A stretch of 64,000 nt of DNA from a bacterium (GTDB taxonomy: Bacteria; Zixibacteria; MSB-5A5; GN15; FEB-12), in the NCBI GenBank assembly GCA_043811375.1, contig JBDRNJ010000072.1:96001-160000 (forward strand). Reading direction: 5' to 3'. Of this stretch, positions 18,001 to 42,000 are shown piece by piece. The stretch's first letter is position 1. Every line of letters starts with the position of its first letter. Position numbers: made by a program.

Positions 18001-21000
18001 CCGGTGGTGCCGCTGATAAAACTCTCTCCCCGATTCGTGCAGGTGCCGTCAGACTCGTCTGGTTCACTGGATGTCAGGGTCTACAGACTGGACAGTCTTT
18101 TCAACATCTCCTTCAAGGTCTACTCCTCGAGTTACCTGGTGCATCTCGACAGTGCAGTGCTGGGGCCGGATGTTGATCCCAATGACTTTCTGTTAGACCA
18201 GACCAGTGGCGATACCGGGTCTTATTCTATTACGCCGTTAGAAGTACATCGCCTTCCGATAGTTGATGACAGCGGCTACGCCACCCTGGCCTCTATTTAT
18301 TACAGCACTTTCTATCCGGAGATGGGCAGTGATACGGCAGTGTTAACCATCGAACCGACGCTGATGTATAAGACGAATGACGACTCGATCCCGGTGGCCA
18401 GTGTCGTGGCCGACGAAAGTCTGATTCAGATAATACCGAATACCGAGAATCCGGTTATCGTTTTCCCTGATGCACAACTGGATTACGTGGTCCGGCAGGC
18501 CTTGGAACCACCGAAGCCAGAAGGAGCTTTATTCCTGTCGGACGTGCTGACGATCAGCGCACTGTATGCGGGTGTTATATCCGCTGAACCCGCCATCTCT
18601 GACCTGACCGGCTTGCACTACCTGACCAATCTGGTTCATCTGACTCTAACTGACAACGATATCCGTGATATTAGCGAGCTTTCCACCCTGGTTAATCTGG
18701 AAATGCTGTTTCTGGGCAACAACGACTCGATCCAAGACATCACGGCATTATCCGGTCTGACGAAACTGCAACAATTGGGTCTCCAGAGTAATAATATCGT
18801 CGATGTTCGGCCGCTGGCGCTGAATAGTGGCCTCGACAGCAGCGACATAGTGTTTCTTGAAAATAACCCCCTGCAGGACATCACCCAGTTGGTGCCACTA
18901 TGTATCCGCCAGGTGGTTGTGTACCTGCAACCGGAAATCAACTACTGTTCCACTATCGGTCGTGAACCTGGCCCGTGAAGAGCCGTTTCCAGCCTTACCA
19001 ACGAATCATGCTCCTGCTGATTATTTCAGCAGGAGCATTCGTTTAGCACAAAAGAAAAGCCGGTCGGGATGACCGGCTTGGTTAGTCAGATAGAAATCAG
19101 TAGTGTCTATTCACGGTCAAACCAGACATCCTCGGTGATTATGGCTTCAAAAGTCGTGGTGGTCGGTATTTCAGCTTCGGAGCCTTTGATGAACAGGCCG
19201 AAGATCAGCAGGTAGGACAACAGCTTGCGTCCTTTCCCATCCGCCGCTATGATCCCCGATCCATCTTCTGTCACCGCGGATAACATAATTGGCTTGTCAC
19301 CCTCGGGTTTGAACTCACCTTTGGGCTGAAGGTCTATCAGCTCCACCTTCAGGAAACCGGGCTTGCCGCCCTTACCTGCGGCCTGCACCGATGTGATCCG
19401 GGCTGATCCGTTGGCACCTTTTTCGACTATCACTACGCCACCGATATCGATGTCGCTTTCGAGCGTAATCTCAACTTCATCACCAGGTTTGACAAACTTG
19501 GACGAAACATCGGCAACAAACTTAACCTGCACTTTACTGCCGGCCGTCACTTGCACTGCGGCCGAGGCGTCAGACACCAATCCCAGTGACAACAACAGCG
19601 CCAGCGCCGCAACCGTCAATCTCGTCAGACCTTTGTTGAGTATTGTTTTTCTTTTCAACTCGCACCTCTATGTTATTTGAACTTGGGCAATTTTTCCTCA
19701 AGACTCTCCTGGCAACTGATTGTTACCTCACCCGTGTTGAATTTCAGGGTAGCATCCAGGTCAAAGATCGAGTAAGGTTCCTTCAACTCCTCCGATTCCA
19801 TCGGGCTTACTCCCCAGGTCTCCGAACTAGGGTCGGTATGCTTCTTGTCCAGGGCAATCAGAATATGATCACCGTTCTTCCATGTAATCCTGAACTCACG
19901 ACCGGCGATGTACATCGCCTTGGGCCAGTCAGGTTCCTGGCCGGGACGGGTTACACAAACGTGAATGTGATGGTCAGGAGGACAGTTGACGACCTTAAAT
20001 GTGTACGCACGGCTGTTCTTGAAATATTCGACCTGGCTGAGATAGGCGTTAGCGCTGTCTAAGGCACCGCCCTCAAGGTTGGGTCTCAATTTCTTCAATT
20101 TCGTTGGCAAAGTAACCAGCAGGTACTTGGGATCGTCCATTTTCTGTTCGTAGCCGGAAAGAGCACCTGCAAAATCGGAACTGGCCGTCTGGACGGTCTC
20201 TTCCTTGACTGCCACCTGCTCCTGTGTAGCACCCTCGGCCATTAGGGCATCGAGCAACTGCTTCTCTTCCGGACTGAGATCCTGGCCATAGTTTCCGCGA
20301 TCATGTTCAATCTGCCGCAGAATCTGGCCCCAAAGCGAGTCCGAAACGGCAGCAGTCGAGGCCAGGATCGACTGCTTAAACAACTCCCAATAAATCAGCA
20401 CTCGTCCACTGCGAGAATACAGTGGCGACGTGTTATCAAGTTTCTGAAAGTAGGCCAACTCATCTTCAATTCCTAAGTGTGCTGAATCCATCACCAGACT
20501 ATCTCCGCCGGGGTACCGTTGCGGCCAGCTATCCTTGACACCGACGATGTCTCTGACATCAGCTATGACAAGGTTAAGCCGTTTACCAGCCGCTTCTGTA
20601 CCGAGACCTTTATATAGTTCTGCAATCCGGTTAGATGAGACGTGGAATTGATTGTAAAAAGAACGCACTAACCACTTACGGCTATAGCGGTCATAGGTGT
20701 TCTTGATTCGATTGCGCTCCGTGCCAAGGAGGTTGTCTTTCATGAACTTGTGCGCACCGAGAATGTTCTCTTCAACTCGTTCCGTTGTAGACAGCAGGTA
20801 CTGGAAATGATACAGGTTCGGCAAGGAGTAGGCCGCCACCCAGATCAGACTCAATACGGCGGCATATTTGGCTACTTTCCGCAGAATCGATATACGCTTA
20901 TTCCGGGTGATCGTTTTCAGCATCCAGTAAAACGGCTGACGGACTCCGACCGGACTAATTTTGCCCGGCGGCTTGTACAGGGAACGCCCGACCTCGGTGC

Positions 21001-39000: not shown

Positions 39001-42000
39001 GGGTGAGCAGCCGACAAGTTACCCTTCGCATCCAATACTACAACGTATTCTTTCTTTAGGGCTTCAATCGTAATCTTGGGATTATTGACGAAATTAGCTG
39101 GCTTCTTTTTGGTCTTACTTTGTAAAACCACGCCCTTGGACTTATCCGTTTTCCCGTAAGTCAATTGTGGACCCCGTAAGTTCCTCAGTTCTCAGTGCCG
39201 ACGTCATTCAGATTCGGGAACTCAACCCGAAACTCGCCCGGAGGTACTTTATCTTCTTTCTTGTAGCCGTTTCCGTCCAGGTTACCCGTGCGCACCGTTC
39301 CATTCGAAAGACGAAGAATGTATGCCTCGTTAGCTACAGGATTGCCTTCCTCATCCTTCAGCTTGATCTCGATCCAATCCCGGTACTCCAGCATGCCCGA
39401 CTTCGCCTCATAGCCACCGACCCTTACGGTGAAAAAGTACTGCGGAGCTGACAGCTTTTTGGAAGTTTGTGTTGAAGTGGTATCGTCCGGCTGATCTTCG
39501 TATTCGTACTGCCACCCCTGTTCTATCTTGTCGCCAACTTCAACATTGCGAATGGTCCTGATCTTCACGGGCGGCTCGTTGATGTCCTGCCGGCAGATTT
39601 CAAGGGTGGCTTTTGTTCCGGGTTCGAAACCGGCCGTCTCAACCAACATCTTCACGGTATCCCCAACCCGGGCCTGCTTCTGCGACCACTCGGCTTTGAT
39701 GATTCCCTTCAGTTCGATATCGTGATTGCCCGGTTCGACACCGGTTTTCTTGACTTTGCCGTAAAGGCTACCTTCGTCGGTCTGGTCGTCCGGCGCTTTA
39801 ATCTTGTATGCCACGCCGGTAATCGGTTTGCCGCCTTTGTCCTTGAACTTGACATCAAGGTAGTGGTTTTCGGTCTCGGCTTCATCCTCGGATCCGGAGC
39901 CATCAGCCAACTCTTTGGATACGCCGGCGTCGGCGCCTTCCTTTCCAGTCACCTGTTTGCCTCCGGCACTGGCCATGCCACCGCCACCACCACCACCGCT
40001 GCCTATCAGAACGGTGTTGCAGCCCATTATAATTACATCCGGGGGACCGACACAGGTGCACTGATCAGTGACTCTCGCCGCCGGTTGACCGCAAATCAGG
40101 ACGGTGGGAGCTCCCATTATTATCGGCCCGCCGACATGCGGCGGGGGCGGACCGCCGGGGATAGGACAGGTGTGCATATCCCCCAGGCGGGCAGCAGGCA
40201 CACCTCCGATCAGCACCGTCGGTGCTCCAGCCACGATAACACCACCGTGAGCGGTGGAGTCACCCAATCTGGCTGCCGGCATTCCCATGATCAGTCACCT
40301 GTGAAACGATATGTTGCGTTTACCTTTCTTAATATAGCTGAGCAGGAAGCGTCAAGTCAATACTGAGTTTCCCCTGACCACATCAAAATCTTCAGTAACA
40401 TCTTTCAATGAGGCACCACGCATAAGAAAATCGGAACCTCCCTTCGACAAACTCAGGACAGGCAGGGGTTCCGGCCTACTTTGACTTTCTCGGCGGTTTG
40501 TGAACAGCGGTCGTCAACCGATCAGTCGGCTAATCTTCTCAATGTCTCGATTGGCCTGCCGGTAGTCGTCGGGGCGGCCGACATCCAGCCAGTAACCGTC
40601 GTGGGGATAGGTGTTGACAGGCTCCCGTCGTTTCAGCAACATCAACACCAGGTCATCAAAGCCGAAGCTCTCTCCCTCGGGCACCAGTTTCAGCACCTCA
40701 CGCGAGAAGACATAAACGCCCGTGGATACGACTGACGTAAAGGTCGGTTTTTCCTGAAAACCGCAGACAATACCTTCAGCGTCAATCTGCAGGACCCCGT
40801 AATCGATCCTGGTAGTCCGTTCCTGAGTAGCTACCGTCAGCCGGGCGCGGCTGTTTAGATGATAATCAAACAGGGCGCGAAAATCGATATCGGTCAGTAC
40901 GTCACCGTTGACCACAATGAAGTCGGTCGGCAGACCCTCGACCAGTTTGAGCGGCCCGACCGTAGACAACGGTTGCTCCTCGTGCGAGTAGATCACTTCC
41001 AACCCCCAGCGGCTGCCGTCGCCGATGGCGGCCATGAGCAAGTGAGCCAAGTGATTGACGGCCATATAGACCCTCTCGATACCGCACTTTTTCATTTGCG
41101 TTAAAAGGATTTCGACTATCGGTCGGTCGCCAACCGTAACCAGCGGCTTGGGAATCTCAGCCGTGTAGGGCTGCAATCGTTGACCTCGCCCACCGGCCAG
41201 AACCACTGCCTGCAGAGGAAGAGCATTGCTGTCCGGTGCCTTTGTCATAATCAGATATTACGATATCGCGGATCGCGGGGATTGTCAATAAGTCCGGAGG
41301 CAATGGCCGAAGCGATCTCACGGATGCCATCGGGTACCTTCCGGGTGACGGAGAAACCCAATTCGGTCCCTATGCGCCGGCAGTCTACTCGGTAATCACG
41401 CGGGTCGTCAGTGCGGTCAACAAACGATACCCGGTCATCCGGCAGCGACAACTCCTTTAAGATCAACTCGACCACGGATTCCTTGCGATAGTTTTCAGAT
41501 GAATCACCCACGTTGAAAGTCTGTCCGGCCACCAGCTCTGGCCCCGACTGGAGCACAGCCACACAAGCCCGAGCCAGATCGACCGCGTGACAATATGGCC
41601 GCCACGATCGTCGGCAGTATATCTCGAGTTTCAAACCGGCCAGCAGGTCGCGGGTGAATTCGTTTACAGTCAGGTCGAACCGGGGACGACTCGACAATCC
41701 GTAAGCGGTTGCAAAACGAAGGCAGGTAACAGCCGGTCGGCGTCCGTGGTGTTGCTTAAGATACTGTTCAAAACCGACTTTTAATTCTGCGTAGAGCGAC
41801 ACCGGGTGCAGGGGAGCGGTCTCATCCACAGGAGTATCACTATTTCGGCTGACGCCATAATTGCTGCAGGTGGATGCGAATACAAATCGCTCGACACCGG
41901 TTTCACGAGCCTGCTCATATAACATTCGGGAAGCGTCCCGGTTGACGGCTACCGCCAGAGATTCATTCTGCCGACAGGCTTTATCACCTACCACTGCCGC

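Follow-up and report, generated by a model that had tools for sequence, protein, structure and literature searches.

A T6SS-iii-related secretion operon in Zixibacteria with a candidate third kind of membrane complex

Subtype iii among type VI secretion systems (T6SS), stated to be confined to Bacteroidota, has a membrane complex of TssNQOPR (Bongiovanni et al., 2024, PMC10781749). According to the same paper, a baseplate-docking membrane gene adjoins tssK in both known subtypes, and three scenarios are left open for the origin of the two known membrane complexes. Kaur et al. (2020, PMC7159879) described membrane double-GTPases with extracellular domains as switches, and the main text of that paper contains 0 occurrences of the terms 'T6SS' and 'IcmF'.

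Here we describe an intact T6SS operon of an uncultured bacterial group, located at 19107-40288 on the minus strand of the window, by which we mean the whole analysed stretch of 64,000 nucleotides from a Zixibacteria genome. It is likely, in our judgement, that the operon encodes an intact T6SS that is anchored in the membrane, belongs to a relative of subtype iii and uses g02468, g02467 and g02466 as a membrane complex of a third kind. What the data establish is the gene content and order, the topology signals, the co-inheritance and a GTPase fold whose motifs are intact.

The operon and its contractile parts

All ORFs named in an earlier survey of this DNA were found at their positions on the minus strand, and every ORF of the cluster is intact. 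The core components TssB, C, D, E, F, G and K, VgrG, PAAR and ClpV/TssH all lie within this one cluster (Table 1). Pfam and NCBIfam searches of the cluster proteins reproduced the assignment of TssC and TssD to the T6SS-iii families and re-found TssB, VgrG, TssE, TssG, TssK, PAAR and DcrB, together with TssF, whose weak family score (0.009) is backed by the position of its gene. TssA was not found: ImpA_N had no match in the whole genome, and the positive control matched. Residues 1-339 of TssK aligned with TssK-iii (hhalign 99.8%) and residues 7-322 with TssK-i (98.0%), and the C-terminal part (about 340-482) resembled neither in hhalign. The survey had set the left boundary at 19673; we place it at 19107, because g02466 is conserved after g02467 and a putative operon terminator lies downstream of g02466. 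The neighbouring convergent operon, at 12333-18978, carries two CsgG-like genes.

Table 1. Features of the T6SS operon, in window coordinates
Feature	Position	Strand	Description and evidence
Intrinsic-terminator-like hairpin	19057..19079	-	after g02466; 9-bp stem, 6 GC pairs, T tail; consensus match only
g02466, 183 aa	19107..19658	-	signal peptide; beta-rich domain, short hydrophobic hairpin
g02467, 741 aa	19673..21898	-	cytoplasmic TRAFAC GTPase 34-337, TM 341-362, helical stalk about 390-627, beta domain 630-729
g02468, 309 aa	21938..22867	-	all-helical cytoplasmic domain, one C-terminal TM; at tssL/tssN position
TssK	22881..24329	-	Pfam 4.9e-8, NCBIfam 3.7e-14
TssG	24483..25394	-	PF06996 2.4e-17; hhalign 97.3% to TssG-iii
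TssF (divergent)	25391..27055	-	PF05947 0.009, TIGR02243 4e-5; between tssE and tssG
TssE (gp25-like)	27088..27462	-	PF04965 1.4e-12
VgrG spike, without large C-terminal extension	27472..29238	-	TIGR03361 2.6e-43
TssD/Hcp tube, iii-type	29312..29722	-	PF17642 8.4e-20
TssC sheath, iii-related	29792..31222	-	PF17541 1.6e-71; 28-30% identity to Bacteroidota TssC
TssB sheath small subunit	31246..31686	-	PF05591 9.5e-8
ClpV/TssH second half (AAA+ D2)	31708..32814	-	Walker A/B intact; ~461-811 of intact relatives
ClpV/TssH first half (Clp-N + AAA+ D1)	32811..34271	-	Walker A/B intact; ~1-460 of intact relatives
g02479, variable cargo, possible effector	34495..35661	-	no family
g02480, conserved PAAR-extension paralogue	35745..36638	-	38% identity over 173 aa to PAAR 196-359
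g02481, DcrB-type adaptor	36652..37095	-	PF08786 7.9e-12
g02482, HEAT-repeat protein, hydrophobic N-terminus	37092..38015	-	HEAT_2 6.8e-6; hydropathy
g02483, variable cargo, possible effector	38025..39164	-	no family
PAAR tip, long C-terminal extension	39185..40288	-	PF05488 1.3e-23

As the survey had described, ClpV is encoded by two genes with an ATGA overlap. The split is common to 20/25 genomes, down to about 40% identity and with all Walker motifs kept, and so is not a frameshift. The split ClpV and the weak TssF, together with the failure to find TssA or any known anchor, could be read as signs that the locus is decaying, or that it makes an eCIS-like injector which works free of the membrane, rather than as signs of membrane-anchored secretion. 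We consider this highly improbable, since all ORFs are intact, the split is shared among relatives, and a two-part TssB/TssC sheath, ClpV and TssK are present; the genome has a true eCIS on contig C38, with a different sheath and tube. Free eCIS are not known to have a two-part sheath, ClpV or TssK.

Among the cargo genes, g02480 is probably a cargo adaptor, judging from its similarity to the PAAR extension, and g02482 may possibly encode an immunity protein. Neither g02479 nor g02483 had a family match in Pfam or NCBIfam, and g02479 was not found in the 11 relatives inspected. Predicted peptidoglycan hydrolases accounted for 3/16 of the cargo-position proteins scanned in relatives (PG-binding plus VanY, Amidase_2, and PG-binding plus weak M43), which fits delivery into neighbouring bacteria.

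Conserved membrane and exported genes

Only three conserved genes of the operon, g02468, g02467 and g02466, encode membrane or exported proteins; the survey had counted two anchor candidates, leaving out g02466, which directly follows g02467 in 67/67 loci with enough sequence. TssC-iii, for which the earlier figure was 142/284, occurred in 145/285 phylum genomes, as did g02467, and 143 of the 147 genomes holding either hold both, counts that overstate the support because kin are not independent. The four discordant genomes are 58-77% complete. g02468 precedes g02467 in 70/71 loci, and tssK lies in the same locus in 64/65. On a distant contig of 67% GC, the tssK-g02468-g02467-g02466 block was kept despite rearrangement, with TssC 35% identical, tssBCD inverted and ClpV intact. 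Where the operon is broken (6 genomes), g02467 lies beside a g02466 relative in 5/6, the sixth ending at a contig edge, and g02468 stays with tssK in 6/6, as it does in every locus inspected.

A C-terminal TM was present in 139/139 relatives of g02468, and exactly one TM in 138/139; TssN, in comparison, has 5 TM segments plus a cytoplasmic domain. The AF2 model (pLDDT 92) matched TssL 4acl (Z 6.0, rmsd 4.2, 134/155 aligned) and TssL 3u66 (Z 5.8, rmsd 5.6, 140/168 aligned) at ranks 35 and 45 of 48,161 chains, and the invariant F87 aligned with the TssL 'GFEG' stretch in a weak hhalign match (E 0.049). PF09850 (TssL/DotU) had no match anywhere in the genome, and g02468 had none to PF17555 (TssN), each with a matching positive control; hhalign of g02468 to TssN gave 0.1%. 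The modelled likeness to TssL is weak.

For g02467, the survey had reported no TM segment. This is contradicted by a conserved TM helix at 341-362, seen both in the hydropathy of homologues and in the AF2 model (pLDDT 90), where one continuous helix runs across the TM region. The best hydrophobic window fell at positions 330-359 in 120/120 homologues, with a basic stretch upstream, and KD19 was at least 1.6 in 104/120. From model and hydropathy we infer a single-pass inner-membrane protein with the GTPase inside and the helical stalk and beta domain in the periplasm. With a single-pass g02467 and a tail-anchored g02468 encoded after tssK, the topology comes closer to TssL/TssM than the earlier reading granted.

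The DO-GTPase2 match of g02467 was reproduced (Pfam, E 5.2e-5). PF19993 was the top family in 50/50 members; some relatives exceed its cut-off of 27 bits, and the window protein scores 23.5. The G1, G3 and G4 motifs are invariant or nearly so among relatives, and the Walker-B reads DYDGK in the window, without the conserved glutamate, and DYKGE in 10/50 aligned members. The best structural match was an Asgard Rag-like GTPase (Z 15.8, rmsd 3.0, 175 aligned), the matches in whole-model fold searches being filled by the GTPase domain. With a GTPase-domain profile, double-GTPase-like proteins scored 44-117 bits and TssM 12 bits or less, and TssM formed a separate long branch. Of the two, the double-GTPases of conflict systems are the nearer kin of the g02467 GTPase, and TssM is the more distant. 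A GAP1 or GAP1-N2 gene was not found in this genome; in families f5 and f16, a GAP1-N2-like gene lies downstream of the GTPase in 4/4 scanned (E 1e-4 to 5e-4, below cut-off).

These data also bear on a hybrid of T6SS-iii tail and T6SS-i-type membrane complex, in which g02468 and g02467 would be an extremely diverged true TssL and TssM. The gene order K-L-M and the topologies match, both TssL structures fall within the top 50 chains for the g02468 model, and F87 aligns as noted; further, at E<=0.3 IcmF-related_N matched 29/50 relatives of g02467, sub-threshold and with 3.6e-4 as the best value, and the GTPase core matched TssM in hhalign with 62% probability (E 8e-5). However, among helical proteins a Z near 6 is at background level, 34 unrelated chains ranking above, and the TssM likeness is confined to 57 columns of shared GTPase core, whereas the periplasmic parts gave a probability of 0.1%. 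The TssM domains IcmF-related_N, IcmF-related and IcmF_C had no match in g02467 over cut-off (positive control matched), and TssM was found in 0/50 representative g02467 matches scanned. With the profile scores, the separate branch and the GAP1-N2-like gene after the GTPase in f5 and f16, we hold the hybrid to be somewhat unlikely. As to function, it is compatible with the three-gene complex that we prefer.

g02466 is a candidate periplasmic or outer-membrane anchor component. An AxA-like site was found in 63/65 relatives and a lipobox-like one in 1/65, and the hydrophobic hairpin, of 15-17 residues, looks too short for crossing a membrane. Matches resembling g02466 occur in 176/285 genomes, with weaker relatives in genomes without a T6SS; in f5, f16 and f17 the relative is on the opposite strand and is therefore not co-transcribed there. 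By way of 4 distant relatives, hhalign aligned g02466 with the VirB10 C-terminal barrel at E 0.0016 and a score of 27.6, with a probability of only 16%; control scores did not exceed 19.4 over 100 column shuffles or 17.2 over 15 other templates. Direct hhalign of g02466 against VirB10/TrbI was negative, and Pfam TrbI had no match in 65+13 proteins. The likeness to the VirB10 barrel appears weak.

Proposed working of the complex

In the three-gene complex, g02467 would cross the inner membrane once, and its stalk and beta domain would span the periplasm like TssM. Tail-anchored g02468 and the GTPase domain may dock the baseplate (TssEFGK-VgrG-PAAR) by its TssK head, like TssL/TssN, and exported g02466 may take the role of TssJ and bind g02467 at its far end, at or close to the outer membrane. 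Hcp and TssBC would polymerise and contract, the PAAR extension, together with g02480 and DcrB, would carry the cargo, and the two-piece ClpV would recycle the sheath. GTP binding probably sets the moment of assembly or firing, which is the least supported step, and the GTPase was seemingly co-opted from membrane-bound double-GTPase (GAP1-N2) conflict systems. Against this, there is no clear outer-membrane component among the anchor genes, and in f5 g02467 has a short periplasmic part, about 290 aa against some 750 for TssM, perhaps rather little to bridge the periplasm. A bolder version, which we consider unlikely, has a T6SS-iii-related tail anchored by a third complex of independent assembly: a GTP-switched trans-periplasmic protein from double-GTPase conflict systems, a tail-anchored and TssL-like dock for TssK, and a minimal barrel of VirB10 type making a ring at the outer membrane, with a natural two-polypeptide ClpV recycling the sheath.

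The GTPase module could also be a regulator or sensor, a double-GTPase switch, with the true envelope channel elsewhere, for example in the convergent CsgG-like operon. Membrane double-GTPases have been described as switches (PMC7159879), an operon of kinase, CsgG, CsgG/TPR, 376-aa and LRR genes adjoins in 33/41 loci (kinase in 32/41), and the distant locus L187 has a CsgG-like gene nearby. In contrast, the 376-aa marker also occurs in families without a T6SS (f9 6/6, f19 3/3, f20 13/15) and this query gave no match in the T6SS-bearing f16 (0/10) and f17 (0/14); g02468 stays with tssK, and GAP1-N2 was not found in the genome. This role of the module is distinctly unlikely in our view.

Comparison with known systems

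A third T6SS membrane complex, if true, would be a third way of fixing a T6SS in the cell envelope. A T6SS-iii relative with another anchor in half of Zixibacteria genomes bears on the origin of membrane complexes and speaks for a single phage-derived tail onto which anchors were co-opted more than once; should g02468 be TssL-like, it would instead suggest an ancestral TssL-type dock. The VirB10-type reading, if true, would mean a T6SS that combines a GTPase checkpoint with an outer-membrane part like that of type IV secretion. The operon also assigns a membrane double-GTPase a role that can be tested, offers a naturally split AAA+ ClpV, and is likely an antibacterial weapon in an uncultured phylum.

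Extracellular contractile injection systems (eCIS, Afp/PVC-like) were rejected as a class for this cluster: it has TssB/C, ClpV and TssK, and eCIS have a single-chain phage sheath, a gp19 tube and baseplate J. In the VirB10 barrel the antenna is the membrane element. The g02466 family has a weak profile likeness to VirB10/TrbI, in register along 83 columns in the barrel's N-terminal half, with its hairpin, judged by eye, at the antenna position; it differs in a much shorter hairpin and in having a cleavable signal peptide where VirB10 has its inner-membrane anchor. Outside its own family, the GTPase domain of g02467 has its nearest relatives in the DO-GTPase2/GAP1-N2 conflict systems, and they share its GTPase-TM-extracellular architecture, the GAP1-N2-like gene downstream in f5 and f16, and kinase, PP2C and FN3 genes near L187. 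The window GTPase, however, is single-copy inside a T6SS operon, without the Walker-B glutamate, and a search of the genome found no GAP1.

With the T6SS-i of Pseudomonadota (TssJ-TssL-TssM), the operon shares the order tssK, tail-anchored helical protein, P-loop-TM-periplasmic protein, as well as a small exported protein. In contrast, no DotU, IcmF or TssJ family match was over cut-off; in agreement with the survey, TssJ, TssL and TssM had zero Pfam matches among the cluster proteins at E<=0.1, and hhalign found no TssJ there either. g02467 lacks N-terminal TMs, has 741 aa vs about 1150-1190 in TssM and carries a GTPase closer to double-GTPases, and g02466 is not a lipoprotein.

As to T6SS-iii, the Pfam families of TssN, O and R had no match in the cluster at E<=0.1, and as a control reference proteins were recognised with this library for TssN, O, R, L and M. 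Remote homology to TssN-R, which the survey had left as a possibility, was checked with B. finegoldii, Hymenobacter and Bernardetia sequences without a match; hhalign against TssO, P, Q and R gave 1.3% or less, a comparison that is shallow because 1-2 reference sequences stand for each. Genome-wide, TssN and TssR had no match, but neither had they in control genomes (this genome is 95% complete). The cluster lacks a multi-TM protein, a PKD protein and a vWA lipoprotein, its TssK has an extra C-terminal domain, and its TssC is 28-30% identical to, and outside, the Bacteroidota clade. The label 'Bacteroidota-type (iii)' was therefore overstated, the TssNOPQR complex being missing and the sheath lying outside that clade: of the survey's finding, contractile parts of T6SS-iii type with a non-canonical anchor stand, and membership in subtype iii, a two-gene anchor and the topology of g02467 do not. 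Several features are shared with T6SS-iii: TssA was not found, a membrane gene adjoins tssK, TssC and TssD belong to the iii families, TssK and TssG are closest to iii, and the sheath tree joins the window system with iii against i (SH-aLRT 100).

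Gene content and placement of the core

The T6SS operon was read in a genome that is 95% complete (contig C72), and its GC content is that of the flanks. Homologues that carry a name place it among the Zixibacteria. Family scans bore out the survey's finding for TssC-iii, TssD-iii, TssB, VgrG, TssE, TssG, TssK, PAAR, DcrB and the two ClpV halves, as well as for TssF, which gave a weak match only. The reported absence of TssJ, TssL and TssM also held, with no family match among the cluster proteins, and the same was found for TssN, TssO and TssR; as a positive control, reference TssL, M, N, O and R proteins were recognised by the same family library. 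IcmF_N, DotU and ImpA_N were not found genome-wide in searches whose controls all rang, and TssN and TssR gave no genome-wide match in searches whose controls did not ring either.

Features of the window and related clusters elsewhere
Feature	Position	Strand	Remarks
CsgG operon	12333-18978	+	convergent with the T6SS operon; Ser/Thr kinase-like gene, two CsgG-domain genes (one with TPRs), 376-aa exported protein, LRR lipoprotein-like gene
T6SS operon	19107-40288	-	19 intact ORFs, from PAAR (40288) to g02466 (19107)
Sigma-70-like match	24354-24382		10/12; upstream of tssK; possible internal promoter
tssG	24483-25394	-	N-terminal segment with weak PASTA likeness (E 0.011); perhaps an addition specific to this subtype
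Sigma-70-like promoter	29327-29356	-	near-consensus, 11/12; end of tssD, upstream of vgrG; possible internal promoter
Nucleotidyltransferase, epimerase and TPR genes	40514-44483	-	upstream of PAAR; do not accompany the cluster in those relatives that were read; look unrelated
eCIS-type cluster L186	C38:1-9642 (G000)		phage sheath, two gp19 tubes, CIS_tube, VgrG-like, PAAR, baseplate J; separate 9.6-kb contig binned with the same genome, real or mis-binned
Distant GTPase relative	L162:11944-14067		707 aa; Fusobacteriota (Haliovirga) plasmid; no T6SS gene annotated within 12 kb either side

ClpV is indeed encoded by two genes; the break falls in the linker that joins its two AAA+ modules, and each half has its own Walker A and B motifs. 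The second gene overlaps the stop of the first (ATGA or TGATG) or starts some tens of bases on. Frameshift or decay was ruled out as the cause, since the gene is split in 20 of 25 readable genomes with start sites of its own; it is intact (813-816 aa) in the other 5, all of families f16 and f17. The split ClpV is an inherited two-gene form, not damage.

The window TssC shares 28-30% identity with four Bacteroidota TssC proteins. In quick TssC trees (4 type iii and 6-7 type i sequences, one tree lacking the eCIS row and 6 others), the Zixibacteria sheaths grouped with T6SS-iii against T6SS-i (SH-aLRT 100), and Bacteroidota TssC formed a separate long-branched clade (support 98-100); the same quick trees gave no firm branching order among the Zixibacteria groups. 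Residues 1-339 of TssK aligned with TssK-iii (hhalign, 99.8%), and its C-terminal ~140 residues are like neither TssK-i nor TssK-iii. Records titled Krumholzibacteriota, their phylum being given by record title only, also hold the cluster (TssC identity 74-77%).

Among the cargo and adaptor genes, g02480 is paralogous to the PAAR extension, with 38% identity across 173 aa, and g02479, g02482 and g02483 differ among genomes. At the cargo positions of relatives, 3 of the 16 proteins scanned are predicted peptidoglycan hydrolases, which suggests that the cargo is aimed at bacteria.

The neighbouring CsgG operon adjoins the T6SS in 33/41 loci, occurs also in T6SS-free families and was not found in f16/f17, a distribution that rules it out as an obligatory T6SS part. 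Its 376-aa exported protein is without a family match, and the gene has a second copy on contig C10. In many genomes of family f5 (loci L033, L136-L138, L142, L143 and L145) a Ser/Thr kinase gene lies directly upstream of the cluster, upstream of clpV, which hints at phosphorylation control.

The three genes after tssK

The survey had described g02467 as devoid of TM segments. It is a membrane protein instead: the top hydrophobic window falls at 330-359 in 120/120 homologues, with a basic stretch before it. The AF2 model (pLDDT 90, pTM 0.58) predicts a TRAFAC GTPase and a long helix that runs through the TM; the chain is helical up to residue 627, and residues 630-729 form a beta domain. The best structural match of the GTPase had Z 15.8 (rmsd 3.0, 175 aligned), and G43, G48, K49, D135, G138, K209 and D211 are invariant (50/50).

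The cytoplasmic domain of TssM is also an NTPase, and direct descent of g02467 from TssM was weighed against a double-GTPase source. A sub-threshold IcmF_N signal appeared in 29/50 g02467 relatives, and hhalign aligned g02467 with TssM over 57 columns; both reflect the shared GTPase core. An exhaustive profile search with g02467 gave 599 matches at E<=0.001. Fifty of these, picked from the best 150, were scanned; 47 matched a DO-GTPase family at E<=0.01, and TssM was not among the 50. With the domain profile, outside relatives scored 44-117 bits and TssM at most 12 bits, only 3/5 TssM proteins receiving any score. In a quick GTPase tree (TssM_L159 dropped, two rows under half filled) TssM stood apart on a long branch of its own; this tree is biased because the double-GTPases were picked by likeness to g02467. 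In f5 and f16 the gene after the GTPase is GAP1-N2-like, and Kaur et al. (PMC7159879) give GAP1 as the partner of DO-GTPases; GAP1 was not found in this genome. Taken together, the tests favour a double-GTPase source over direct TssM descent.

In loci L035, L037, L039, L040 and L149 of f16/f17 the GTPase lies away from the core, preceded by arrays of Ig-like and TolB-like propeller lipoprotein-like genes. A wider metagenome group of 700-1050-aa GTPase-TM proteins (P0318-P0352) is related to g02467; a metagenome search with a 5-sequence alignment returned no match. Genomic context was obtained for one of the ~16 distant 700-1050-aa GTPases (P0325), and since this sole placed protein sits in a T6SS locus, the subtype probably reaches beyond Zixibacteria.

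For g02468, the AF2 model is all-helical (pLDDT 92), and the C-terminal TM is kept in 139/139 relatives. TssL had been named as a candidate ahead of the structure search. The best structural match reached Z 7.9 only, and two TssL structures gave Z 6.0 and 5.8, at ranks 35 and 45 of 48,161, with 83-86% of each target aligned. A weak profile match to TssL (E 0.049) falls on a conserved TssL stretch. Foldseek returned no match for g02468 at E<=0.001, and neither g02468 nor residues 363-741 of g02467 had a usable ESM Atlas match. This weak likeness in structure and profile is suggestive of a TssL-like protein, not proof.

The survey had limited the anchor candidates to these two genes and left out g02466, which lies directly after g02467 in 67/67 loci. 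It is followed by a terminator-like hairpin, and its product carries a cleavable-type signal peptide without a lipobox. The wider family occurs in 176/285 genomes, with strong matches in T6SS genomes. Its distant relatives aligned with the VirB10/TrbI barrel, keeping register over the barrel's first half, and scored 27.6 (E 0.0016), where 100 shuffled controls reached 19.4 at most and 15 other templates 17.2; E was 0.007 with the window g02466 added. The signal arises only via this bridge of distant relatives, direct hhalign of g02466 being negative against sets of 2 and 9 VirB10 sequences. Pfam gave no TrbI match in the g02466 family, neither the g02466 profile nor protein P0282 found anything meaningful among PDB sequences, and a VirB10 search of viral contigs was empty. 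The antenna of VirB10 has a pore role, and the VirB10 likeness of g02466 remains a lead.

Co-inheritance and putative anchoring roles

Among the 285 genomes of the phylum, g02467 and TssC-iii were each found in 145 and together in 143, counts in which kin are not independent; the 4 genomes with only one of them are 58-77% complete. In six broken operons (G170, G241, G245, G252, G253 and G255), g02468 stays with tssK in 6/6 and g02467 with a g02466 relative in 5/6. On a far-diverged metagenomic contig of 67% GC with a rearranged core, tssK, g02468, g02467 and g02466 still form one block (the near-copies L187 and L188 were counted once). The broken operons and this contig carry more weight than plain co-occurrence. 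Kinase, PP2C, CsgG-like and FN3 genes also lie near the T6SS on the 67%-GC contig.

In both known T6SS subtypes a docking membrane gene adjoins tssK (PMC10781749). From topology, place beside tssK and co-inheritance, we infer anchoring roles for g02468, g02467 and g02466.

Comparison with known contractile systems

Literature searches, whose coverage left out subscription journals and supplements, found no description of the system; the supplementary tables of PMC7159879, outside that coverage, could list such neighbourhoods. The contractile cycle of T6SSs is established knowledge. It is also outlined in the introduction of PMC10781749.

Membership of T6SS-iii fails, as the cluster gave no match to TssNQOPR, and so does membership of T6SS-i, as the system is without TssJLM over the cut-off and without TssA. 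Nor is it an eCIS, the free contractile injector; the system would work like a T6SS.
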